Translations under genes and position numbers: made by a program
DNA from: Phycisphaerales bacterium
GTDB taxonomy: Bacteria > Planctomycetota > Phycisphaerae > UBA1845
Direction of reading: 5' to 3'
NCBI GenBank assembly: GCA_020852275.1
Contig: JADZBE010000026.1
Span: forward strand, 192,338 to 256,337
Length of the DNA stretch: 64,000 nt
Notes under the pieces: generated by a model
Databases searched by the model: none
What the model was told of the DNA's origin: nothing
What the model saw: the letters and a program-made list of their open reading frames with translations, nothing else
Shown here: in pieces, positions 8,810-61,701 of the stretch
Layout of the letters: each line of letters starts with the position of its first letter
Position numbering within the stretch: the stretch's first letter is position 1

Positions 8810-9029
8810 GAAAAAAATCACACTGTTCAAGTAACATCATGGATGCCATAAGTTTATGGCTGTGGTTGTGGCAACCGGGGGAGTTTGGGAAGGAGTTGAG
8901 GGCTTTACGCACGGCGAAAACCGCTGGTTTTCGCTGTATCGCGCAAGGTCTGCGCGAGAGCTGCGACGGGATCAGACGGCGTGGGTCGCCTTGCAACCCG
9001 CGGTGGAACCCGAAGCTGGGCAGGAGCTC

Positions 9030-9131
9030 GTCAGCCCCGCGAAGGCGGGGATCCAGGACGCACGGGGAAAGGCTGGATTCCCGCCTGCGTGGGAATGACG
9101 GGGCTGGATTCCCGCTTGTGCGGGAATGCCG
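9030..9131. repeat. REP-like hairpin family R2, three copies
   Basis: gtcagccccgcgaaggcggggatccagg (9030-9057, inverted variant), ctggattcccgcctgcgtgggaatgacg (9073-9100) and ctggattcccgcttgtgcgggaatgccg (9104-9131). Confidence 0.8.
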
Positions 9132-9162
9132 GAACCCCGTTGTCGCCGCCCCGCGGGAGGCC

Positions 9163-18346: not shown

Positions 18347-21229
18347 GTGTCCAGCGAGAACCCACAACCGGCGACCCAGTCGGACGAGCGCCGACTCATT
18401 GAGGCCGCCCGCAGCGACGCCGAGGCTGCGGCCGCGGGTGGAGACTCGGCGGTCATGCTCCCCTCCGGCGGCATCCCTGGTTATGAGATCCTGCATGAGA
18501 TCCACCGGGGCGGTCAGGGCGTGGTCTATCGCGCGCACCAGAAGAGCGCCGGGCGCACCGTGGCGATCAAGGTGATGCGCGAAGGTCCGTTCGCCGGGCC
18601 TTTGGATCGGGCGCGCTTCGACCGCGAAGTGCGCATCCTCGGCGCGCTGCGGCACCCGAACATCGTCGCCATCCACGACAGCGGGCAGTCCAGCGGTCAT
18701 TTCTACTACGTGATGGACTACATCGCCGGGCAATCGCTCGACGCCCACGTGGCGGAGCGCAAGCCGGACCTGGCGGCGGCGCTGAAGCTCTTCCTGAAGA
18801 TCTGCGACGCGGTGAACGCGGCCCACCTGCGCGGCATCGTGCACCGCGACCTCAAGCCGGGCAACGTCCGCGTGGACGCCGCAGGCGAGCCGTTCATTCT
18901 CGACTTCGGTCTGGCGCGCGGCGCGGGAGCGTGGGCGCAGTCCGTGCCTCAGCCGGTGACCGTGACGGGACAGTTCATCGGCTCGCTGCAGTGGGCCAGC
19001 CCCGAGCAGACGGAAGGCATCCCCGATCGCGTGGACATGCGCACGGACGTGTATTCGCTGGGCATGATTCTCTTCCACATGCTGACGGGCAAGTTCCCGT
19101 ACGACGTGGCGAGCGAGATGTGGGTCGTCGTGGACCAGATCCGCCGCGCGGAGCCGGTGCGCCCGCGCACGTTGCGGCGCGAGATCGACGACGATCTGGA
19201 GACGATCCTGCTCAAATGCCTGCGGAAGGACCGCGAGCGGCGCTACCAGACGTCGGGCGAGCTGGCGAAGGACCTGCGGCATTACCTCGCCGGCGAGGCG
19301 ATCGAAGCCAAGCGCGACAGCTCGTGGTACGTGCTGCGGAAAACGCTCCAGCGGCACCGCGCGGCGGTGACCAGCGCGGCGCTCGTCGCGGTCGGTTTGG
19401 TAGTGTTCTCGATCGTGACGTTCGCGATGTATCGCACGGCGGAGGCGGAGCGCGCGCGGGCGCAGACCGAAGCAATGAAATCGCGCCAGACCGTTGACCT
19501 TCTGACCGGGGTGTTCGCGTTCATCGAACCGGAGAAAGCCAAGGCACGCGACACGAGCCTGCTGCGAGAAGCCCTTGATCACGCGGCGTCCCGCATCGAG
19601 GTCCAGCTTGGAGGCCATCCGGAACTGGCGGCGGAGCTTCACCTGTACGTGGGTGAACTGTACATGCGGCTGGGCTACTACGATGCCGCCGCCGAGCGCG
19701 GGCGCCGCGCGGAGGCGCTGGTCGAGCCGGAACGAGGGCGCGCTACGTCCGAATCGGTGCGGATCGTCAGATTTCTGATCCTGTGCGAATGGAAAGGAAA
19801 GTCGCCCTCCGAAGCCCTCGGACCGAGGCTGGAGGAAGTCCTGGCGCTGCGCCGCAGCTTCGCTCCCGACGGCAGCCTGGAGGTGACGGAGAGCCTCTAT
19901 GACCTCGGTCGGTTCAACTACGAGCGCGCCAACTACCCGCAAGCGCTGGGGCTGTTTCAGCAGGCGCTGGACCTGCTCGACGGGCTTCCAGCCCCCGCGA
20001 TCGAAAAGAAAGCCGAGGTTCTTCTTGATGCCGCCCGTACCGCCATCATGCAAAACGACCACGCCCGCGCCGAGTCGTTTTTCAGGCAGCTCGATGCGCT
20101 GCTGGATGATCGGGACACCAAACCCAGCCTGATCCTCGCTGAAGTCCTCAGTACGCGGGCGCTGCAGATCTGGCGCGGAGGGAAGGAGAGCCTCGATCAC
20201 GTCGCGCCGATGTTGACGCGGGCGCTTCGGATGCAGGAGCAACTGCTTCCCGAGCCGGACCATCCGACCATCGCCAGAACCAAGGACATACTGGGGCTGT
20301 ACCTTTTCGAGAAGGAATACGCCGTGCGAGGCAAGGAGGGGCTGCGGTACCTTGAAGAGGCCTACCGAATCCGCACCGCCAGGCTGCAGCACGACAGCGA
20401 TGAGCTTGCGGACAGCTTGCACCATTACGCTTCGGCGTTGATCGACGAAGAGCGCGTCGATGAGGCGGAACCGCTGCTGAGCCGGGCCATCGAGATCCGC
20501 GCGAAGTTGTTCGGCGCTGAATCACCGCAGGTTGCGGACCTGATGCGCTTGAAAGCGGAGGCGAGGGTCAAGGACCGGAAGCTCGACGAAGGTTTGAAGA
20601 TTCTGGGTGAGGCTCTTGCCCACCTGCGCTCCGGCGCCCAGCCGGATCGTGAAGTGGAACTCCGCTGCCTCCACGACATCGGCGCGCTTCAAATCAAGGC
20701 CAAGGAGTGGGATCTCGCCGCCGACTCGCTTCAAGAGGGCCTGAACCTCCGCCGCGCAATGTCCGGCGGGGGGCCCAGCGATGACTTGGCGGAATTCCTC
20801 CGCATGCTCGCCCAGGCGCGACGCGAACAGAAGCGTTTCGATGAGGCCATCGAATTGCTCAACGAGTGCATCAGCGTCTCCCGGCAGGTGTACGGCGCCG
20901 GCCATGAGGACGTTCCCGTCATACTGAATACGATGGCGAGAACCCTGATCCAAGCGCGCCGCGCCGCCGAGGCGGAGAAGTACGTTCGTGAGGCGGTGGC
21001 GCTGTGCGACGCGGGCACGCCGTGTCAACCGGGCAAGGCTTGGGAATTCCAGCTTACTTTGGGGGAATGCATCTTCCGGCAGAACCGGCTCGACGAGGCC
21101 GAGCCGATCTTGACGCGGGCGTTGGACGGTCTGAAGGCTCATCAGGCGTCCGAAGGAGCAATCTCGTATGCTCAGAAGATTATCGGGGACTTGAAATCCG
21201 CTCGCGAGTCGGCCCAAGGCGGGTCGTGA
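18347..21229 (+). CDS. Ser/Thr protein kinase with one TM segment and a long TPR-like C-terminal domain
   Basis: GTG start 4 nt after the sigma-factor stop. Kinase motifs: GGQGVVYRA, VAIKVM, HRDLKPGNV, DFGLAR, SPEQ. TM segment AAVTSAALVAVGLVVFSIVTFAMY. About 560 aa of TPR-like helical repeats follow. Confidence 0.85.
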   Translation: MSSENPQPATQSDERRLIEAARSDAEAAAAGGDSAVMLPSGGIPGYEILHEIHRGGQGVVYRAHQKSAGRTVAIKVMREGPFAGPLDRARFDREVRILGALRHPNIVAIHDSGQSSGHFYYVMDYIAGQSLDAHVAERKPDLAAALKLFLKICDAVNAAHLRGIVHRDLKPGNVRVDAAGEPFILDFGLARGAGAWAQSVPQPVTVTGQFIGSLQWASPEQTEGIPDRVDMRTDVYSLGMILFHMLTGKFPYDVASEMWVVVDQIRRAEPVRPRTLRREIDDDLETILLKCLRKDRERRYQTSGELAKDLRHYLAGEAIEAKRDSSWYVLRKTLQRHRAAVTSAALVAVGLVVFSIVTFAMYRTAEAERARAQTEAMKSRQTVDLLTGVFAFIEPEKAKARDTSLLREALDHAASRIEVQLGGHPELAAELHLYVGELYMRLGYYDAAAERGRRAEALVEPERGRATSESVRIVRFLILCEWKGKSPSEALGPRLEEVLALRRSFAPDGSLEVTESLYDLGRFNYERANYPQALGLFQQALDLLDGLPAPAIEKKAEVLLDAARTAIMQNDHARAESFFRQLDALLDDRDTKPSLILAEVLSTRALQIWRGGKESLDHVAPMLTRALRMQEQLLPEPDHPTIARTKDILGLYLFEKEYAVRGKEGLRYLEEAYRIRTARLQHDSDELADSLHHYASALIDEERVDEAEPLLSRAIEIRAKLFGAESPQVADLMRLKAEARVKDRKLDEGLKILGEALAHLRSGAQPDREVELRCLHDIGALQIKAKEWDLAADSLQEGLNLRRAMSGGGPSDDLAEFLRMLAQARREQKRFDEAIELLNECISVSRQVYGAGHEDVPVILNTMARTLIQARRAAEAEKYVREAVALCDAGTPCQPGKAWEFQLTLGECIFRQNRLDEAEPILTRALDGLKAHQASEGAISYAQKIIGDLKSARESAQGGS

Positions 21230-22480: not shown

Positions 22481-23809
22481 ATGCGATTTCGACAACTGAC
22501 TGCGATGGGTGCGGCTCGCTCTGCGCCGATGACGCTGCAGGATTGGCGCACGGACTCACTCGGCGTGCTGATCCTGATGGCGCTTGTGCTGCTGGGCGTG
22601 ATCGGGTGCGGAGGGTCGGGGGCGCCGGGCGGTCCCTCCACGCTTGAACCCTTCTCCCAACTGGACCTCACGACTTCCGATCAGGAAGAAACGGGGGACA
22701 ACGAGAACTTCGCGCAGGCCGAGACGCTGCCCCTTCGCCTCGACGAGGACTACACGGTCAGCGGCACGATCGACTCCGCCGCGGACGTGGACATCTACGA
22801 TCTCGGCGCGGTGCGCAGCGGGGACCGCGTTCTGGCGGAAGTCTTCGCCGATGATTCGCTGGATGGCGCGATCGCCTTGTTCAACGGCGCGGGCGAGAGC
22901 CTGCTCGTCAACGACAGCCAGAACGTGTACCGCGGCAGGCTCGGACCGTATGTGGACCTCGTGCTCAAGCACGACGGCGAACACGCCTATCTCGTCGTGG
23001 CCTCCACCTCGGGCAGCGACACGACCGGCGCCTACACGCTGGCGGTGCGAATGACCGAGGGCGAGTCGATCCCCTCGCCGGCGCCGCAGGAGGTGCTCCT
23101 CAATTTCGCCGGCGCGACCGGCATCGGTTTCGGCGGACGGCCCGATGTGAACATCCCCGCCTTCGACGCCGCGGACATCTCCAGCGAGTTCGAGGGCAAG
23201 ACGGGCGACATGGTGGCGCGCATCGTCGAGTTCGTCCGCGAGGATTACGCCGGGCTTGAGGTCGAGGTCCTCTCCACGTCCGAGGGCGCCACCGACGACG
23301 GCGAGGTGACGCGCATCCACTTCGGCACCTACGACCCCGGGTTGCTCGGCGTGGCCGAAGGCGTGGACGAATACAACTCGAGCACGCGGCAGGACGCCAT
23401 CGTCTTCACCGACACGTTCGCCGCCTTCAACACCCTCAGTCCGACGGTGGAAGAGATGGCGCTGGCCGTCGCCAACGTCGCCAGCCACGAGATCGGCCAT
23501 CTGCTGGGTCTCGTGCACACGTCGGATTCGACCGACATCATGGACATCACCGCGAGCCTGTCGCAGTTGATGACCGACCAGGCGTTCGAGACAGCGCCGC
23601 TGCATTCGACGGTGTTTCCCGTCGGGATGCAGGACTCGGCGGCCTACCTGGTGGACTCCGTGGGCGGCGACGCGGAGTCGTTCAAGCGGGTCAAGCAGTT
23701 GGCGGTTCGACGGCGCGCCTTGAACACCCATCCGCGCGAGGTGGACCTCCCGCGCGACGGGCTGCAATTCGGATCGTGCGGGTCGATTCATGCCTCCAAA
23801 GCGCGCTGA
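22481..23809 (+). CDS. lipoprotein with PPC (pre-peptidase C-terminal-like) domain and matrixin-like (M10) metzincin domain
   Basis: Lipobox LLGVIGCGG. PPC-like GTIDSAADVDIYDLGAVRSGDRVLAEV...AYLVVASTSGSDTTGAYTLAV. Zinc site HEIGHLLGLVHTSDSTDIMD (HExxHxxGxxH). Confidence 0.75.
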   Translation: MRFRQLTAMGAARSAPMTLQDWRTDSLGVLILMALVLLGVIGCGGSGAPGGPSTLEPFSQLDLTTSDQEETGDNENFAQAETLPLRLDEDYTVSGTIDSAADVDIYDLGAVRSGDRVLAEVFADDSLDGAIALFNGAGESLLVNDSQNVYRGRLGPYVDLVLKHDGEHAYLVVASTSGSDTTGAYTLAVRMTEGESIPSPAPQEVLLNFAGATGIGFGGRPDVNIPAFDAADISSEFEGKTGDMVARIVEFVREDYAGLEVEVLSTSEGATDDGEVTRIHFGTYDPGLLGVAEGVDEYNSSTRQDAIVFTDTFAAFNTLSPTVEEMALAVANVASHEIGHLLGLVHTSDSTDIMDITASLSQLMTDQAFETAPLHSTVFPVGMQDSAAYLVDSVGGDAESFKRVKQLAVRRRALNTHPREVDLPRDGLQFGSCGSIHASKAR

Positions 23810-23850
23810 CGAAGCCGCATCCGCGCGCGAGCGGGGCTGCAAAGCGGGAT

Positions 23851-23996
23851 GGCAGCGAGGCAGCAAGCCAACTAGGCAACGAGGCAGCGAGGCAGCGAGG
23901 CAGCGAGGCAGCAAGGCAACTAGGCAACGAGGCAACGAGGCAGCGAGGCAGCAAGGCAGCAGGGCCACGAGGCATCAAGGCATCAGGGCAGGGCGG
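23851..23996 (+). repeat. 8-bp microsatellite (GGCAGCGA/GGCAACGA)n, about 18 units
   Basis: ggcagcga ggcagcaa gccaacta ggcaacga ggcagcga ggcagcga ggcagcga ggcagcaa ggcaacta ggcaacga ggcaacga ggcagcga ggcagcaa ggcagcag ggccacga ggcatcaa ggcatcag ggcagggc. A period of 8 is incompatible with coding. Confidence 0.9.
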
Positions 23997-24014
23997 CAGT
24001 CAGTCCCCGAAGAA

Positions 24015-24137
24015 GTCATGCGTAGAGACCTGCACCCGGTGGCACGGTCTGGCGTACTCGCCAGGCCGTGGCGAGCGCGACGAACGCGGATCCTCTCGCA
24101 GCGCCACGGGTCCGCTGCTGCGAATCCGGGCCACCCG
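24015..24137 (+). repeat. REP-like element family R1 (GGTGGCACGGTCTGGCGTACTCGCCAGGCCGTGG ... CCACGGGTCCGC-N4-GCGGACCCGTG)
   Basis: This is the forward copy, directly after the 8-bp array. Related copies lie at 25655-25778, 26405-26500, 42695-42810 and 52585-52685. Confidence 0.85.
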
Positions 24138-24352
24138 AAGCGAACCCCTCCCGGCCGCTTGTGGCTGCGGTTGCGTGCTGCCCCACAGCCTTGATGTGGC
24201 AGGGATGCGCTTCCGCGCATTGACCGGTCTCTTTGCCTCTCCCTACCATTGCCGATATCAGCGGGACCGGCTGCGCGGCCGGAAAACGGCGCGCGGGGTT
24301 ATTCCTGCGCAGGACGGGCACGAACGGCATTCGGCAGGGAGGACACGACTCG

Positions 24353-25585
24353 ATGACACGGCTTCTGGCGCGGGCGGCGGAGTGCGAACGAACGGGCGCC
24401 ACGAAGGCCATCGGCGCCGCATCGTCGAGTACGACACGCCGACGCAGGATCGTTCTCACCGCGTGCGGCCTTGTCACGCTGCTTCCCCTCGTTGCATGTG
24501 TCCCTCCCACGGAGAGCGCCCCCGTCGGCGACGTGGAGGACGGCAATCGAGGCGAGATCCCGGCGGACACGACGGGAAAGACGCAGGGCGAACCCAACGG
24601 CAGCTTCGATGCCTCGATCCTCGCCGTAATCGACGACGCCGGCGAAGCCGCGCTGGAGGGAACCATCACCAGCGGCGCGGATGTTGACGTTTTCAACCTG
24701 GGCGCGATCGATCCGGGAGATCAGATTCTCATCAGCGCCGACACGCCCGGCTCCTCGCTGGACATTGCCATCAGCCTGTTCGACGACGAGGGGCGCCTCA
24801 TCTTCTACAACGACGACAAGAGCGGCTCGGACTTCGACGCGGAGATCGATCACATCGCGCGACACGCCGGGACGGACTGTTATCTGCTGGTCGAGGCGTC
24901 GTCCTTCCACAGCGCCGGCGCCGGCAGCGGAACCTATCAGGTGGACGTGAGCCTGTGGCGCGGCGGCGACGTTCCCGAGCCGGTGGCTCAGACACTGTTT
25001 CTGGATTTTAACGGCGGCGCGGTGGACTCGCCCACGCTGGGGCGCGTGACGATCTCGCCCTTCGACGCGGCTGAAATCAACGCCGACTACGAAGGGGAGA
25101 CGGAATCGCTCAAGGAACTGATCCGCGTCGAGATCGAGGCGAACTTCGCGGCGTTCGATGTGCAGGTGGTGACCTCGGACGCCTTCACGCCCGGCCCAGC
25201 GGACAAGCAGTCCACCCTGTTTTTCGGCGGGTATCAGGCGGACATCTTCGGCGAGGCCGAGGACGTGGACCTCTACAACCTCAACTGCTGCGACGACGCG
25301 ATCATCTATACGCAGTCGTTCGACCCGGACGTGGTGTTCTTCAGGCCGCCCACGACGGCGCAGATGGGGCGCGCCATCGGCAACGTGGCGTCGCACGAGG
25401 CGGGGCACCTTCTGGGACTCAATCACACCAACGACGACACGGACCTGATGGACGAGCAGTCCGCGGCGCAGGCGCTGACCCGCGATCAGGAGTTCATCGA
25501 AGCGCCGCTCTCGACGCAGATCGCGCCGATCGGCACGCAGGACTCGGCGCTGCTCCTGCTGGAGACCCTGGGTCCGGCCACCTGA
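24353..25585 (+). CDS. PPC + matrixin-like metzincin lipoprotein, paralogue of 22481-23809
   Basis: Start at ATG 24353 (MTRLLARAAE...). Lipobox-like LLPLVACVPP. PPC-like GTITSGADVDVFNLGAIDPGDQILISA...CYLLVEASSFHSAGAGSGTYQVDV. Zinc site HEAGHLLGLNHTNDDTDLMD. Colinear with its paralogue. Confidence 0.75.
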   Translation: MTRLLARAAECERTGATKAIGAASSSTTRRRRIVLTACGLVTLLPLVACVPPTESAPVGDVEDGNRGEIPADTTGKTQGEPNGSFDASILAVIDDAGEAALEGTITSGADVDVFNLGAIDPGDQILISADTPGSSLDIAISLFDDEGRLIFYNDDKSGSDFDAEIDHIARHAGTDCYLLVEASSFHSAGAGSGTYQVDVSLWRGGDVPEPVAQTLFLDFNGGAVDSPTLGRVTISPFDAAEINADYEGETESLKELIRVEIEANFAAFDVQVVTSDAFTPGPADKQSTLFFGGYQADIFGEAEDVDLYNLNCCDDAIIYTQSFDPDVVFFRPPTTAQMGRAIGNVASHEAGHLLGLNHTNDDTDLMDEQSAAQALTRDQEFIEAPLSTQIAPIGTQDSALLLLETLGPAT

Positions 25586-25654
25586 GGATCGCCGTGGGCG
25601 GCAGGCGCGCCCGGTGGCACTCGCGCCCGATTGAATTCGCGCCGGATGGCGTTC

Positions 25655-25778
25655 GCACCGGGTGGCACGGGTCCGCAGCAGCGGACCCGTGGCGCGCTTG
25701 AGGTCATGCACTTCTCTCCATCTCCACGGCTTGGCGAGTACGCCAGACCGTGCCACCCCGTGCAGGTCTCTACGCATG
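25655..25778 (-). repeat. REP-like element family R1, inverted copy
   Basis: Contains a perfect 11-bp-stem hairpin, cacgggtccgc-agca-gcggacccgtg (about 25666-25691), and ccacggcttggcgagtacgccagaccgtgccacc. Its reverse complement aligns with 24015-24137. Confidence 0.85.
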
Positions 25779-25792
25779 AATCCTTCGGCGGC

Positions 25793-25832
25793 TACCTGCC
25801 TTGTTGCCTCGTTGCCTTGCTGCCTCGTTGCC
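25793..25832 (-). repeat. 8-bp microsatellite, inverted orientation (TCGTTGCC)n, about 5 units
   Basis: ctacctgcc ttgttgcc tcgttgcc ttgctgcc tcgttgcc. This is the reverse complement of the GGCAACGA unit. It lies next to the inverted R1 copy, mirroring the 23851-24137 layout. Confidence 0.8.
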
Positions 25833-26037
25833 GCGCTTCGCCCCGCCCGCAAAAACGGCGTGCTACTGTCAGCAAACTCACGTTCTTGTCGGAACTGCAA
25901 CAAGGTCCGCGTGACGGCGTACACAGTCTGGCGATCCGTGCGAATAGTAGAGTATGAAGGGCGAATACCTGACGCGCCGCGGCCGGTCGGCTGCGCGCCT
26001 CTGCATGGTGGTTCGTCCTCAGGGGACAGGAAGCAAC

Positions 26038-26331
26038 ATGGCCCGGCTGCCGCACTATCTCCATTGCCCGCACTGCGAGCACCCAACCTTGGTGCCGGCG
26101 CACTCGTTCGGCGATCTGCACCGCTGCCGCCAGTGCGCGGGGTATTACCGCCCCAGTCAGGTGGTGCCGTCGGTCGCCACCGACCTGGCGAGTCCAGAAA
26201 CGCGGACCCCAGCGCCGCAACGCCTTGCACCCCCGAGTCGCCCGAAGAAGAAGCCGCGCGGCGCGTCCGTCATCGCCGCCTTGAAATCGCTGACGCCCTC
26301 CGCCGCCAAGCCGCTGGATCGCGCAAGTTGA
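26038..26331 (+). CDS. small zinc-ribbon protein (CxxC...CxxC) with basic/Pro-rich tail
   Basis: MARLPHYLHCPHCEHPTLVPAHSFGDLHRCRQCAGYYRPSQ... G/C third-position bias is high. ATG at 26038 inside track ORF 25954-26331. Confidence 0.5.
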   Translation: MARLPHYLHCPHCEHPTLVPAHSFGDLHRCRQCAGYYRPSQVVPSVATDLASPETRTPAPQRLAPPSRPKKKPRGASVIAALKSLTPSAAKPLDRAS

Positions 26332-26332
26332 G

Positions 26333-26396
26333 GGCAGAGAGGCAACGAGGCAGCTAGGCATCAAGGCAACCAGGTATCGAGGCAACCAGGCAGCCC
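26333..26396 (+). repeat. 8-bp microsatellite, about 8 units
   Basis: ggcagaga ggcaacga ggcagcta ggcatcaa ggcaacca ggtatcga ggcaacca ggcagccc. Confidence 0.8.
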
Positions 26397-26404
26397 GTGG
26401 GCCG

Positions 26405-26500
26405 GGGCGCGCCGGGTGGCGCGGTCTGGCGTACTCGCCAGGCCGTGGCGAGCGCGATGAACGCCAATCCCCTCGCAGCGCGATGCGTCCGCAGCAGCGG
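26405..26500 (+). repeat. REP-like element family R1, forward copy
   Basis: gggtggcgcggtctggcgtactcgccaggccgtggcgagcgcgatgaacgcc...cgcagcgcgatgcgtccgcagcagcgg. The layout is the same as 24015-24137. Confidence 0.8.
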
Positions 26501-26648
26501 CCCCCTACTCCCTTGCGTGCGACATTTCCGTGCCGCGCTGCCGTGCCGGCCGACACCGAGAACGACGGGGCGCTTCGCATCGTGCTGATGCCAAATCCGA
26601 TCGCGACGGCCCTGGTCCGACGCGCGCCGATCCTCCGCGCCGGTTCGT

Positions 26649-26676
26649 TTGGCGACTCCCCGGTATCCGCTATAAT
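26649..26676 (+). promoter_or_regulatory. candidate sigma-70 type promoter for rimO
   Basis: TTGGCG-N16-TATAAT (perfect -10 at 26671-26676). A GGAGAA Shine-Dalgarno-like element lies 6 nt before the rimO ATG. Confidence 0.4.
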
Positions 26677-26705
26677 GCCGTCCCCGCGTCGGGGCGGAGA
26701 ACCGG

Positions 26706-28067
26706 ATGGCCAGACCGACTCATGTAGCTTTCGTTTCGCTGGGGTGCGCGAAGAATCTCGTGGACTCTGAGAAGATGCTCGGTCAGCTTGCCGAGGCCGG
26801 CTGCACGATCACGAACGACGAGGACCGCGCGGACGTGATCGTGGTGAACACGTGCGGGTTTCTGGACGCCTCCCGGGCGGAAGCGATCGGCGAGATTTCG
26901 GACGCGGTGGCGAAGAAGCGCAGCGGACGGGTAAAGCGGGTGGTGGTGGCCGGCTGCCTGGTGCAGCGCGACCAGGAGCGGCTGCACGCGGAGGTGTCGG
27001 GCATCGACGCATTGGTCGGCGTCAACAACCGCGACGACATCGTTCTGGCAGTCCTGGGCGGCGGGAAGCCGCGCCGCAAGGGCAAGCCCGATCTGTACTT
27101 GAGCGATTACCACGCGTTCACGCAGTTGGACACGGGGCGGCTGCGCCTAACGCCGCGGCACTACGCCTACCTGCGGATCAGCGAGGGCTGCGACCAGAAG
27201 TGCACGTTTTGCACGATCCCATCGATCCGCGGTCCCATGCACTCGAAACCGCCGCAGGTTGTGCTGGCCGAGGCGCGCGAGCTGGCGGCAGACGGCGCGG
27301 TGGAAATCAGCCTTATCGGTCAGGACACGACCAGCTACGGCGCGGACATCGGCGACGACGGCGGGCTGGCGGGATTGCTTCGGCATCTGAACGGCGCGGC
27401 GGGGGTGCAATGGCTGCGGCTGATGTACGTGTACCCGTCGGTGTTCACGGATGCGATGATCGACGCCATCGCGGAGTGTGACCGCGTCGTGAAGTACATT
27501 GACATCCCGCTGCAGCACATCCACGACCGCGTGCTCAAGTCGATGCACCGGCGCATCACGCGGGCGGAGACGGAAGCGTTGCTGCGGAAGCTGCGGGAGC
27601 GCATCCCCGGCGTGACGATCCGCACGACCCTGATTGCCGGCTTCCCCGGCGAGACGGAGGAGGAGTTCGGGGCGCTGGTGGACTTTATCCGCGCCTTCCG
27701 GTTCGACGCGTTGGGCGTGTTTCCTTACTCCTTGGAGCCGGAGACGCCGGCAGGGCGGATGAAGGAGCAGATTCCGGACGCGGTGAAGCAGTCGCGAGTC
27801 GAGCGGTTGATGCGCGCGCAGCAGGAGGTGGCCTTCGCCCGCGCGGACGAGTGGCTGGGGCGGCGGTTCGATGTGCTGATCGACGGGCGCGACGCGCAGG
27901 GGAGGGTCATCGCGCGGCACGCGGGGCAGGCGCCCGGCGTGGACAGCGTCACGCTCGTGGACGGCTGCGACGCGCCGGCGGGGCGATTCATCGAGGTGCG
28001 CTGCGGCGGACGCGAAGGGTATGATCTGACGGCCGTGCCCACGAGCGTGGCGCTGCCCGTGCTGTAA
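26706..28067 (+). CDS. rimO: ribosomal protein S12 methylthiotransferase RimO
   Basis: VAFVSLGCAKNLVDSEKMLGQL, VVNTCGFL, radical-SAM site EGCDQKCTFCTIP, and a C-terminal TRAM-like domain. Confidence 0.9.
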   Translation: MARPTHVAFVSLGCAKNLVDSEKMLGQLAEAGCTITNDEDRADVIVVNTCGFLDASRAEAIGEISDAVAKKRSGRVKRVVVAGCLVQRDQERLHAEVSGIDALVGVNNRDDIVLAVLGGGKPRRKGKPDLYLSDYHAFTQLDTGRLRLTPRHYAYLRISEGCDQKCTFCTIPSIRGPMHSKPPQVVLAEARELAADGAVEISLIGQDTTSYGADIGDDGGLAGLLRHLNGAAGVQWLRLMYVYPSVFTDAMIDAIAECDRVVKYIDIPLQHIHDRVLKSMHRRITRAETEALLRKLRERIPGVTIRTTLIAGFPGETEEEFGALVDFIRAFRFDALGVFPYSLEPETPAGRMKEQIPDAVKQSRVERLMRAQQEVAFARADEWLGRRFDVLIDGRDAQGRVIARHAGQAPGVDSVTLVDGCDAPAGRFIEVRCGGREGYDLTAVPTSVALPVL

Positions 28068-28823: not shown

Positions 28824-28845
28824 CCAGTGTTTGGGCAGGCGTCTG

Positions 28846-29022
28846 AGGGCAGGTGTGCCACTGCTGTGTCAGCAGTGGCGTCACCCTTGTGCAGGCAGAA
28901 ATCGAGGGCAGGTGTGCCACTGCTGTGTCAGCAGTGGCGTCACCCCTGTGCAGGCATGAATCGAGGGCAAGTGTGCCACTGCTGTGCCAGCAGTGGCGTC
29001 CCCCCTGTGCAGGCAGGGGTCC
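28846..29022 (+). repeat. 59-bp tandem repeat x3 with internal palindrome (family R4)
   Basis: The unit is gagggcaggtgtgccactgctgtgtcagcagtggcgtcacccttgtgcaggcagaaatc. Copies start at 28846, 28905 and 28964. The palindrome is gccactgctg-tgtc-agcagtggc. A single related copy lies near 61478-61500. Confidence 0.9.
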
Positions 29023-29040
29023 AGAATGCAGGGGAATACG

Positions 29041-29069
29041 TTGGATTCCCGCCTGCGCGGGACTGACGG
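29041..29069 (+). repeat. REP-like hairpin family R2
   Basis: ttggattcccgcctgcgcgggactgacgg. Confidence 0.8.
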
Positions 29070-29161
29070 AAGTCGCTTGTTGCGGCGAATTTCGGAGCGA
29101 CGAGTGGCGCGGGCGTTGACACTTCGGATCGTGGCGCGGGCTCTGACTCAAGGATGACGGC

Positions 29162-42694: not shown

Positions 42695-42810
42695 AGTTTG
42701 GCGCGCTCGTCAAGCCGAGGGGTGTGAGTCACCGACCCACGCTTGTGAACCCCACGGGTCCGCTGCTGCGGACCCGTGCCACCCGACGCTGCTGCGGACC
42801 CGTCACGCCC
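42695..42810 (+). repeat. REP-like element family R1 (degenerate) with perfect hairpin
   Basis: ggcgcgctcgtcaagccgagg (degenerate left block). Hairpin cacgggtccgc-tgct-gcggacccgtg at 42753-42778. A partial re-duplication gctgctgcggacccgtcac follows. Confidence 0.75.
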
Positions 42811-44146: not shown

Positions 44147-44257
44147 CAGCCTGTGGTGGAGTTCGAAACGGAACAGGGGGTCTGTCACCCCCGCACGCGC
44201 GCGGGTCCAGTCTCCCCAGGAAAACCGCTGCATTCGCGCCTCCTTGCAGGCCGTCTG

Positions 44258-44285
44258 TTGGATTCCTGTCTTCGCGGGAATGACG
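44258..44285 (+). repeat. REP-like hairpin family R2 (long form shares about 90 bp with the 50085-50173 copy)
   Basis: ttggattcctgtcttcgcgggaatgacg. The upstream context gggtccagtctccccaggaaaaccgctgcattcgcgcctccttgcagg parallels ggggtccagtccgcccgggaggactgcggcattcgtgcctcgtcgcaagc at about 50085. Confidence 0.75.
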
Positions 44286-44352
44286 AGCGTCGCGCTTTGC
44301 CGGCGACCGCCAGTGGTGCGCCGCGCGGTCAGCGGACGCGCGGCCGTGACGC

Positions 44353-49880: not shown

Positions 49881-50145
49881 CGCCTCCGCCCGCGAGTTGA
49901 CGCCTCCGCCATGTCACTTGCGCGATTGCGAGTCATCTCGGACGGTCGCTGGACCGCTGGATTCCGGTCTGCGCGTCGGGCGGCATTCTCGTGCGGCAGG
50001 GTGGCATGCTCTCGCGGGACTCCGCGTGAGCATGGGGTTCATGCGCGAGGCGCAACGCGGCGTCTCCCTCCGTCACGGCGCGCGAACGGGGGGTCCAGTC
50101 CGCCCGGGAGGACTGCGGCATTCGTGCCTCGTCGCAAGCAGCCGG

Positions 50146-50173
50146 CTGGATTCCCGCCTTCGCGGGAATGCCG
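50146..50173 (+). repeat. REP-like hairpin family R2
   Basis: ctggattcccgccttcgcgggaatgccg. Confidence 0.8.
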
Positions 50174-50235
50174 AGCATCGCCCATTACCATGGTTCGTGA
50201 CATGCCCACGCATCGCAGGCGCCCATTCCAGGCCG

Positions 50236-52584: not shown

Positions 52585-52685
52585 GGTGGCACGGACCCGC
52601 AGGAGGGGAGCGTTAGGGCGCGCGAATGAGGGTTGGTGGATCACCCACCACGGCCTGGCGAGTACGCCAAGCCGTGCCACCCAAC
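52585..52685 (-). repeat. REP-like element family R1, inverted copy
   Basis: ccggtggcacggacccgcagg...ccacggcctggcgagtacgccaagccgtgccaccc. Confidence 0.75.
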
Positions 52686-55848: not shown

Positions 55849-56013
55849 GGGGCACCGGCTTTCCAGCCGGTGAGTTCTGGGACAGGTTTCCAACCGGGGG
55901 CCTGCAGCGCAGGTTTCCAACCTGTGGTCTGAAGCACAGGGTTTCAAACTGGTACGGTGTGGCACCGGTTTCCAACCGGTGGCCTGTAGCACAGGTTTCC
56001 AACCTGTGCATGA
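55849..56013 (+). repeat. tandem array of six ~27-nt hairpin units (family R3)
   Basis: Hairpin cores in order: caccggc-tttcca-gccggtg, an imperfect acaggtttccaaccggg, acaggtt-tcc-aacctgt, a degenerate cagggtttcaaactgg, caccggtttccaaccggtg, and acaggtt-tcc-aacctgt. The units are contiguous with no spacers. Confidence 0.85.
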
Positions 56014-60467: not shown

Positions 60468-60658
60468 ATCAAAAGGAGCGTCGCAGGCGATCGGTGGGTG
60501 CGGCGCGCCGGCGGGTCAATGGCCCGGGGTCATCCGGACGGGGACGAGACAGAAGGCGGGTGGTTGGTTCCGTCCCGGCTGATTGCGATGACGTGGTCGA
60601 TTTGCCGGCGGCAGGTGTCGCCCGGTTCGCAGAGGGAGTTCTCGCCCGCTCCTCTCTT

Positions 60659-61419
60659 CGCCCCAGCGGGGCGCAGGCATGTAGCCACGGGTGGAGCGCA
60701 GCCCGCGTCTTCGCGGGCGAAGCGGAACCCGTGGAACGCGGGGCGTTGTCAGGAGCCCGCCCAGAGGGGCGGAGGAGGCGCCGGAAAGTCCAAGAGATCA
60801 ATCGAACACATACTTCTCGTCGAACTCGATCTCATGCAGGCGCAGCATCCGCAATAACTCCGCCTTGAAGTCCTCTTTCTTGTGGTGCTCGGCCTGCCCA
60901 GCGATGTACTTCTTGACGGCTTCTTCCTGCGACTTGCTGACAGAAAAGGCGGAGTATCCCTCCTGCCACGCGAATGCCGCGAGCGTCGGGAATGTATCAT
61001 GCAGCCACTTCGAGGACCGCGCCTTGACCGTGCGCATCAGGTCCGACACGGTCGCATCGGGCCGCCACCGCACGTACATGTGAACGTGGTCCTCGACGCC
61101 GCCGATGCCGTACAGCACGCCCTTCTCAGCCCGCACGATGCCGCCCATGTACGGATACAGACGTTCGGCGACGTCAGGCGTGATCCAGGCTTCGCGGTGC
61201 TTGGTGGAGTAGACGATGTGCAGGAGAATCTGCGAGTACGTGCCGGGCATCCGGGTCCTTTCCTTCTACGCGAAAACTCCTCCGCCCCTCCGGGGCGGCA
61301 AGAGGATAAGGGAACCCTGCTTCCACGGGTTCCGCTCCGTCCGCCGCGGCCGGGCTTTGCCCGGCGGCGCGTCGGACTCCGCTCCACCCGTGGCTACAAC
61401 CCGACGCCCCATCGGGGCG
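60659..61419 (-). mobile_element. IS200/RAYT-like unit: Y1 transposase gene bracketed by ~120-140-bp imperfect inverted repeats
   Basis: Left arm 60659-60778 and right arm 61277-61419. Shared blocks in inverted orientation: cgccccRNYggggcg, gtagccacgggtggagcg, agcggaacccgtggaa, ccSSaggggcggaggagg. Confidence 0.7.
60798..61250 (-). CDS. IS200/IS605-family Y1 (HUH) transposase, REP-associated tyrosine transposase (RAYT)-like
   Basis: MPGTYSQILLHIVYSTKHREAWI..., HUH motif DHVHMYV, SKWLHD..., FAWQEGYSAFSVSKSQEEAVKKYIAGQAEHHKKEDF. 150 aa. High G/C3, like host genes. Confidence 0.8.
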   Translation of the reverse strand: MPGTYSQILLHIVYSTKHREAWITPDVAERLYPYMGGIVRAEKGVLYGIGGVEDHVHMYVRWRPDATVSDLMRTVKARSSKWLHDTFPTLAAFAWQEGYSAFSVSKSQEEAVKKYIAGQAEHHKKEDFKAELLRMLRLHEIEFDEKYVFD

Positions 61420-61701
61420 TTCAGAGCGGGGACGGGAGCGATATCGTACATGCGACGGCCCAGCCGTGAACGAAGGGAGGTGTGCCACTGCTCTGCGAGC
61501 GGTGCCGGACGCGAGGAGCGCCCCGGCCGCTCGAAGCTTTCGAAGACGCGGACACGGAGGAATCGCTTCGACCGGGAATCGTTCGAGGTTCGCTGAAAGA
61601 TCGTCGTTCGGCGTTCTCCATTGCTCCCAGAGCAGCGGCACACGTTCACGTCACTGCGATTCCAGCAGGGCCACCCGCCCCGATCCTCCGAGTCTCGCTA
61701 T

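Follow-up and report, generated by a model that had tools for sequence, protein, structure and literature searches.

Octamer arrays and REP dimers in three adjacent spacers of a tandem metzincin locus in a Phycisphaeraceae genome

The window analysed here is a stretch of 64,000 nucleotides (nt) from a Phycisphaerales bacterium (G000:C26:192338-256337), where G000 denotes the source genome, which is metagenome-assembled and measures 5.05 Mb with 65% G+C. A sister species (G001) and three congeners (G002, G003 and G004) were used for comparison. Three neighbouring spacers in the window, located 3′ of metzincin protease gene 1, of metzincin gene 2 and of a small zinc-ribbon open reading frame (ORF), each hold a composite of an octamer array and a hairpin element, R1. 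Our results indicate that two independent classes of non-coding repeat probably came to share these three adjacent spacers of a repeat-saturated Phycisphaeraceae genome, and that the metzincin duplication is the older event. As originally posed the case is an ordinary one: dimers of repetitive extragenic palindromes (REPs) lie beside a long-unit microsatellite, and the protease duplication is not explained by either of them. The REP dimer and the array both belong to kinds of repeat that are already known.

Composite repeats and the metzincin duplication

Reading of positions 23600-26700 confirmed the layout given in a preliminary description of this DNA. Array-plus-R1 copies are present at 23851-24137 (copy a, forward), at 25655-25832 (copy b, reverse, the mirror arrangement) and at 26333-26500 (copy c, forward). 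Copies a and b form an inverted pair around the second metzincin gene, as had been claimed: the arms 23958-24074 and 25721-25837 are 82% complementary over 117 nt, and the arms 24101-24155 and 25641-25695 are 85% complementary over 55 nt. They enclose nothing but the promoter-like site of metzincin 2 and the metzincin ORF itself (24353-25585). The zinc-ribbon ORF is bracketed by inverted arrays too, those of copies b and c. Tandem Repeats Finder (TRF) reported array a with period 8, 16.5 copies and 83% matches at 23851-23982, followed by decay to about 23996. The perfect 11-bp hairpin previously ascribed to R1 is present in copy b, and in copies a and c it has decayed. An Rfam scan of 23000-27000 with E up to 1 returned merely two sub-threshold chance matches.

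The composite is not a unit, and array and R1 are independent genome-wide. The hairpins that make up R1, REP-A and REP-B, were found within 400 nt of 5 of the 19 octamer arrays of the genome, and three of those five are the copies at this locus. The idea that array and R1 always travel together is contradicted by this count, which leaves just two associated arrays beyond the locus. The same pattern of independence was seen in the sister species. When dispersed repeats were scored in the 150 nt downstream, they followed 10 of 19 arrays, as compared with 37% of control spacers, which is no clear excess. Other arrays are trailed by different hairpin families, such as CGTC-tagged elements and GGGCGGGC hairpins, and spacers in the source genome are generally crowded with repeats. 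R1 had also been reported without the microsatellite at two further places in the window. Neither is an intact copy: 42695-42810 contains just REP-B and a partial duplicate of its 3′ half, and 52585-52685 is a decayed dimer.

The metzincin duplication is ancient, far older than the repeats, because the two paralogues are only 37% identical and the tandem pair is found family-wide, in about 29 of the 30 genera sampled. At the tandem-metzincin loci of other genera no octamer arrays and no GTGG-tagged hairpins were found. Metzincin 1, metzincin 2 and the zinc-ribbon ORF are all present in the three congeners, where the spacers are short, contain neither array nor REP, and keep a promoter-like TTGACC-17/18-TACGAT box; the promoter-like site of metzincin 2 is thus retained in repeat-free relatives. 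The sister species differs from the source genome at 23-35% of four-fold sites in correctly framed genes, and carries all three composites at orthologous sites. Its arrays have about 2 units against 16-18 at site a, 12 against 5-6 at site b, and 7-9 against 8 at site c. The repeats arrived in the common ancestor of these two species, and the arrays have since changed length.

The repeats are unrelated to the metzincin duplication. The proposal that they explain it fails on the low identity of the paralogues, on their tandem arrangement in almost all genera, and on the confinement of the repeats to two sister species. A proposed check was whether repeat-free orthologous loci contain a single metzincin gene; the three congeners carry both paralogues with no flanking repeats. 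This outcome, and the lack of association between array and R1 beyond the locus, had both been named beforehand as findings that would tell against a duplication or cassette, and that interpretation therefore fails. The locus provides a natural series from which the spread of such repeats could be dated, with three empty-site congeners and two sister species in which the sites are filled at different lengths.

Coordinates of the features of the locus are collected in Table 1.

Table 1. Features of the metzincin locus, in window coordinates
Feature	Position	Strand	Description
Metzincin paralogue 1	22481-23809	+	442 amino acids; HExxH; Peptidase_M10 match
Octamer array a	23851-23996	+	(GGCARCRA), about 16-18 units; starts 42 nt past the metzincin-1 stop
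REP-A hairpin, R1 copy a	24038-24074	+	GGTGG tag plus CACGGTCTGGCG-TACT-CGCCAGGCCGTG
REP-B hairpin, R1 copy a	24104-24135	+	Mutated 3′ arm (GCGAATCCGGG), imperfect hairpin
Promoter-like site, metzincin 2	24220-24249	+	TTGACC-18-TACCAT; downstream of array a and R1
Metzincin paralogue 2	24353-25585	+	410 amino acids from ATG; resident gene, not cargo
REP-B hairpin, R1 copy b	25661-25692	-	Perfect 11-bp stem CACGGGTCCGC-AGCA-GCGGACCCGTG; AGCA loop on + strand
REP-A hairpin, R1 copy b	25721-25757	-	
Octamer array b	25797-25832	-	TCGTTGCC-type on + strand; 4.5-6 units
Small CxxC...CxxC zinc-ribbon ORF	26038-26331	+	N-terminal half conserved across the genus
Octamer array c	26333-26392	+	About 7-8 units (TRF 6.8); starts 2 nt past the zinc-ribbon stop
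REP-A hairpin, R1 copy c	26415-26451	+	
Decayed REP-B, copy c	26480-26505	+	Loop AGCA, not TGCT
Promoter-like site	26649-26676	+	TTGGCG-16-TATAAT; precedes radical-SAM methylthiotransferase gene (26706-28067)

Two further differences between the genomes were observed around the locus. In the three congeners another gene follows the metzincin pair and the zinc-ribbon ORF, and the methylthiotransferase gene is on a separate contig. Synteny is broken past position 26331 of the window, and a rearrangement breakpoint therefore coincides with composite c. Upstream, positions 18347-21229 encode a Ser/Thr protein kinase of 960 amino acids with C-terminal TPR repeats. The sister species lacks a counterpart of segment 18362-21297 at the syntenic position, which amounts to a difference in gene presence or absence.

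REP dimers and long-unit arrays across the genome

R1 is a head-to-head heterodimer of REP-A (GGTGG-CACGGTCTGGCG-TACT-CGCCAGGCCGTG) and REP-B (CACGGGTCCGC-TGCT-GCGGACCCGTG-CCACC), which are of opposite polarity and carry their GTGG tags outermost. Perfect-stem hairpins of the form CACGG...CCGTG were found 167 times genome-wide and fall into these two families. A mismatch-tolerant search yielded 191 copies, of which 147 (77%) have their midpoint outside called genes. Compensatory stem variants (CACGGTCAACGG...CCGTTGGCCGTG) occur among the REP hairpins, and copies are present in four congeners as well. Strict dimers of REP-A and REP-B, with tags pointing outward, number 20 in the genome, and their spacing is most often 28 nt. 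Hairpin similarity between dimers is 83-92%; the inner spacer is 36% alike, as against 29-32% for random flanks. In the predicted fold of R1, pairing between the outer tags closes off the two hairpins.

A REP-associated tyrosine transposase (RAYT) gene was located on contig C31 by a search for inverted REP-B pairs. It is enclosed by such a pair (C31:111294-112092) and its product matches NF047646 at 86.4 bits (NCBIfam, cut-off 80). REP-B is the cognate repeat of this gene, whose product presumably spreads the REP hairpins. The genome has four PF01797 matches, among them an IS200-type gene in the window (60798-61250), and neither REP-A nor REP-B flanks any of the four. R1 can thus be classed as an ordinary REP dimer.

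REPs with GT(A/G)G tags, heterodimers, and spacers of equal length and unlike sequence were described by Di Nocera, De Gregorio and Rocco (2013; PMC3733652). The elements found here resemble the REP/RAYT systems of that account in being short tagged palindromes with hundreds of copies, mostly intergenic and near the 3′ end of the upstream ORF. They also resemble them in forming head-to-head dimers of two different hairpins across spacers of constant length and variable sequence, and in that inverted copies of one hairpin, REP-B, enclose a RAYT gene. They differ in that the GTGG tag is found in a planctomycete, that REP-A is without a RAYT of its own in the assembly, and that at this locus the dimers lie beside an octamer array. 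Two REP-A/REP-B dimers in the window, at 24038-24135 and 25661-25757, show the constant 28-nt spacing with dissimilar spacer sequence; such spacers have been noted in the literature without explanation.

Arrays of (GGCAACGA)n occur at 19 loci genome-wide (19-20), and seven of eight shuffled octamers gave none, so that the array is not a chance feature. In TRF the three copies at this locus have 16.5, 4.5 and 6.8 units, which qualifies them as head-to-tail repeats of 5-11-nt units in excess of chance. The arrays lie close behind genes. Read in the GGCAACGA sense, 14 of the 19 have a same-strand stop codon no more than 60 nt before their start (7.8% for the null of random intergenic positions, p = 2e-12). 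Eleven start no more than 15 nt past the stop (null 2.1%, p = 3e-14), and some overlap it. Arrays a and c obey this rule; array b, the mirror copy, does not. Octamer arrays are also clustered, with 6 pairs within 3 kb where 0.16 are expected, a number reached in 0 of 20,000 simulations.

The genome contains about 300 arrays with units of 7 or 8 nt, of which the octamer arrays form one family; in some arrays the octamer grades into the heptamer GGCAACA. TRF rows of period 7 number 265, against 19 for period 6. Of the 7/8-nt arrays in spacers between co-directional genes, 115 have their purine-rich strand in the sense orientation and 40 do not (p = 1e-9). The 115 arrays are a median of 12 nt from the stop codon, and those of opposite polarity a median of 170 nt from it, closer to the next start. 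Octamer arrays are limited to the source genome and the sister species, except for one match in genome G012 and one mixed 7/8-nt array in G004. The preliminary description had proposed that the array is a slippage-prone tract, and this is borne out: all orthologous arrays (9 of 9 shared loci) have different unit numbers in the two sister species. One array of the sister species is without a counterpart in the source genome.

The octamer arrays belong to the long-unit class of simple sequence repeats, whose units measure 5-11 nt (Mrazek et al. 2007, as summarised in PMC4679880). In Xanthomonas and Nostoc, G-rich heptamers lie between aligned ORFs, at most 50 nt from the stop and on the coding strand; convergent pairs are common among them, and between sister species their positions are kept and their lengths changed (Rehm et al. 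2015, PMC4692102). The present arrays are alike in their tandem intergenic units of 7-8 nt, in their placement mostly between co-directional genes, 0-50 nt past the stop and sometimes overlapping it, in their frequent convergent inverted pairs, and in their kept positions and changed lengths. They differ from the heptamers of Rehm et al. in the 8-nt unit, in having GG runs only, so that the three-tetrad quadruplex proposed for GGGAATC is unavailable, and in the Planctomycetota lineage. The stop-adjacent, sense-strand rule of the Xanthomonas and Nostoc heptamers thus extends to a planctomycete and to an 8-nt unit. As at contingency loci, a short tandem repeat changes its unit number here. In contrast to those loci, array a follows the metzincin-1 stop and lies about 224 nt upstream of the predicted metzincin-2 -35 box, and a change in unit number therefore shifts neither reading frame nor promoter spacing.

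Two other roles for the unit were considered. A three-tetrad G-quadruplex was discarded, as GGCAACGA has GG runs only, and binding sites for CsrA or Hfq were a poor fit, as the unit has no GGA and no ARN phasing. The octamer also occurs within a protein-coding sequence. In the DNA polymerase I gene (G000:C34:115046-117811, reverse strand) an in-frame insert that derives from the octamer array (…KRGNGATRQISIEATRHQGSEAARQPGN…) lies shortly before the QVHDEL motif, and in the sister species this insert is shorter by 8 amino acids (three units).

Octamer arms and four-helix-bundle cassettes

Gene cassettes for four-helix-bundle proteins (PF05635/TIGR02436, 23S rRNA intervening-sequence protein or IVP, Avd-like) with inverted heptamer arms are familiar from 23S rRNA intervening sequences. 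The microsatellite of the window is the arm repeat of one such cassette family, placed here around resident genes. At C23:10921-11575, inverted GGCAACGA arrays enclose a four-helix-bundle gene of 127 amino acids, the octamer forming both arms, and the cassette sits between a stop codon and the next start. The protein scores 113 bits against PF05635 and 107 bits against TIGR02436, and its match to the Avd protein of diversity-generating retroelements is weak. Its nearest solved structure is 2GSC, which is XCC0516 of Xanthomonas campestris. In G001, G002 and G003 the orthologous site lacks this unit of about 690 nt. What the sister species carries there is just TAG-AAGAAGGC-G-GCCTTGCGGCTTG, a mini-hairpin in which each direction is represented by about one unit.

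All seven PF05635 genes of the genome (7/7) are framed by inverted 7/8-nt arrays, and these belong to seven different unit families: GCGAATA/GCCAACA, TACCCGAG, GGCAAYA, GGCAACGA, GGGTTCA, GAATGCA and GAAACGNC. The C23 cassette and the other six share the order stop codon, purine-rich arm, gene, complementary arm, next start. Of 299 arrays in the genome, 220 have a unit no more than one mismatch from the arm units; in 200 trials with shuffled units the mean was 53 and the highest count 153. Identity among the seven proteins ranges from 21 to 61%, and the closest pair (61%) has the most similar units, GGCAAYA and GGCAACGA. Armed cassettes of the same design were found in congeners, where two copies with (GAAACTA)n arms are part of genuine intervening sequences of 23S rRNA. 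At these two sites, L059 (G001:C25) and L062 (G004:C2), the four-helix-bundle ORF lies within conserved 23S sequence. Inverted periodic arms of the same unit were present in 36 of the 72 usable relatives, which span many phyla, as against 5 for the direct-orientation control. The period is 7 in 31 of the 36 and 8, as in the present unit, in the remaining 5.

The window arrays differ from these cassettes in what they enclose. The window contains no PF05635 gene; arrays a and b enclose metzincin 2 and arrays b and c the zinc-ribbon ORF, so that the arms lie around resident genes of 0.5-1.8 kb. Besides this locus, inverted octamer pairs are found in two places, on contigs C2 and C23. The pair on C2 (G000:C2:35195-36895) is a mirror double array, (GGCAACGA)n(TACCCGAG)n ... 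(CTCGGGTA)n(TCGTTGCC)n, around two paa-like genes.

Because all seven genes are armed, 220 of the 299 arrays match arm units, the two most similar proteins have the two most similar units, and the C23 insertion is genome-specific, each 7-8-nt array family may be the non-autonomous partner of one four-helix-bundle (IVP/Avd-like) cassette, in the manner of REP and RAYT. Under this scheme the protein would be specific for its own unit, arrays standing alone or in pairs (a, b and c among them) would be dispersed relics or landing pads, and arms placed around resident genes would loop these out in RNA. We put this forward tentatively and regard it as rather doubtful in this full form. Most 7-8-nt arrays of a single genome nevertheless fall in the arm families of its resident cassettes, which offers a candidate protein partner for heptamer repeats that have long gone unexplained. 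The family-by-family unit match within one genome and the co-variation of protein and unit are new here, and in our literature search no paper was found that links four-helix-bundle genes to dispersed heptamer repeats.

Inverted arms excise the intervening sequences of 23S rRNA, and the arms of four-helix-bundle cassettes are thought to act likewise. The bracket at the metzincin locus could itself be functional in this way, the arms around metzincin 2, and likewise those of b and c around the zinc-ribbon ORF, pairing in read-through RNA and leading to RNase III-type cutting or to stabilisation. We judge this, the main alternative, unlikely. The arms are indeed built from the unit family of a four-helix-bundle cassette and are 82-85% complementary over about 170 nt. 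The double array on C2 forms a comparable bracket, congeners have genuine 23S intervening sequences with heptamer arms, and 23 of 31 same-unit inverted array pairs face each other with the purine-rich array first, mostly across short loops. However, the array arms of the sister species are unequal (about 2 versus 12 units), which limits pairing to the R1 parts (99 nt, 81%). The promoter-like site of metzincin 2 lies inside the bracket and would give the gene its own transcript without the 5′ arm, and the same genes are, on our account, expressed in congeners that have no arms.

Proposed assembly of the composites

We return to the reading that we consider probable, in which two independent repeat classes share the spacers of an older gene pair. 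The octamer arrays would grow and shrink through replication slippage, as the differences in unit number between species suggest. Their purine-rich strand runs in the direction of the gene upstream, and they lie directly past its stop codon. In the ancestor of the source genome and its sister species, an array and a REP dimer would have reached three successive spacers. Copies a and b have a common leader, a common 40-nt junction and a common tail, which extend beyond both repeats, and copies a and c have a common spacer inside R1. In the orthologous copies of the sister species, junctions and spacers differ from those of the source genome. We infer from this mosaic similarity that patches were exchanged among the local copies by gene conversion at a later stage. 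Short-range copying is real, and the local triplication may have proceeded by such copying together with gene conversion.

The composites would most likely be transcribed as 3′-untranslated RNA of the upstream gene, because each is preceded by a stop codon and followed by the next promoter-like site. The REP stem-loops may then form 3′-end structures, as suggested by the REPs of other bacteria.

Several observations weigh against this account. Three of the 19 arrays and three of some 20-50 dimers lie within 2.6 kb in the same internal order; clustering of this kind is far from random, and some local copying of the composite as a unit therefore took place. No RAYT for REP-A was found in the assembly. 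The 3′-untranslated placement takes its promoters solely from consensus matches. The gene calls behind the statistics come from a custom ORF search with a filter on G+C at third codon positions, not from a trained gene finder. Finally, both the source genome and the sister species are metagenome-assembled, and exact unit counts may depend on assembly.

Independence could also be complete, the arrays and REP dimers having reached each spacer separately, with long permissive spacers collecting every family. Such pure coincidence is quite improbable. In its favour, 37% of long stop-proximal spacers already have a dispersed repeat, and elsewhere the arrays are trailed by other hairpins, the CGTC-tagged and GGGCGGGC elements mentioned above. 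Against it, the three copies not only have the same internal order but similar distances from array to REP-A (19-39 nt), and a and b have leader, junction and tail in common outside the repeats. Three co-occurrences inside 2.6 kb are very improbable by chance for a genome of 5 Mb that contains 19 arrays and about 20-50 dimers.

The preliminary description had inferred a mobile or recombinogenic cassette. The recombinogenic part holds locally, in the junction shared by a and b and the R1 spacer shared by a and c. The mobile part does not, given the independence of array and R1 genome-wide, the gene free of repeats in three congeners, and the outer edges, at which target-site duplications had been proposed as a check and none was seen. 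Inverted repeats are shared with miniature inverted-repeat transposable elements and composite transposons, but the outer edges show neither a target-site duplication nor a direct repeat, and the unit is not present or absent as a whole, the gene standing repeat-free in G002-G004 and no second copy existing. That the segment from a to b is a non-autonomous cassette with metzincin as cargo, whose insertion or recombination made the tandem paralogue, is therefore most improbable: its inverted termini are real, octamer arrays do bracket a truly inserted unit on C23 that is absent in three relatives, and arrays cluster locally (6 pairs against 0.16), but metzincin 2 occupies the same position in G002-G004, where it has no repeats around it, the pair is tandem family-wide, the paralogues are 37% identical whereas the repeats are confined to two sister species, and the a-to-b unit has neither a target-site duplication at its outer edges nor a second copy genome-wide.

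Other repeats were observed elsewhere in the window. The IS200/IS605-type Y1 transposase gene at 60798-61250 (reverse strand; PF01797 91 bits, NF033573 75.5 bits) lies between the arms of a 54-nt inverted repeat (60652-60705 and 61373-61426), which carries a GTAG-tagged hairpin of another family. A 59-nt tandem repeat (2.9 copies, with a hairpin in each) and several copies of an element GTCACCCCCGC...GGGGTCCAG with CTGGATTCCCGCCTGCGCGGGAATGACGG are found at 28845-29016, 9029-9149, 28997-29086, 44203-44301 and 50091-50189. A 27-nt tandem repeat of 4.7 copies, containing small palindromes ACAGGTTTCCAACCGGTGGCCTGTAGC, occupies 55852-56008.

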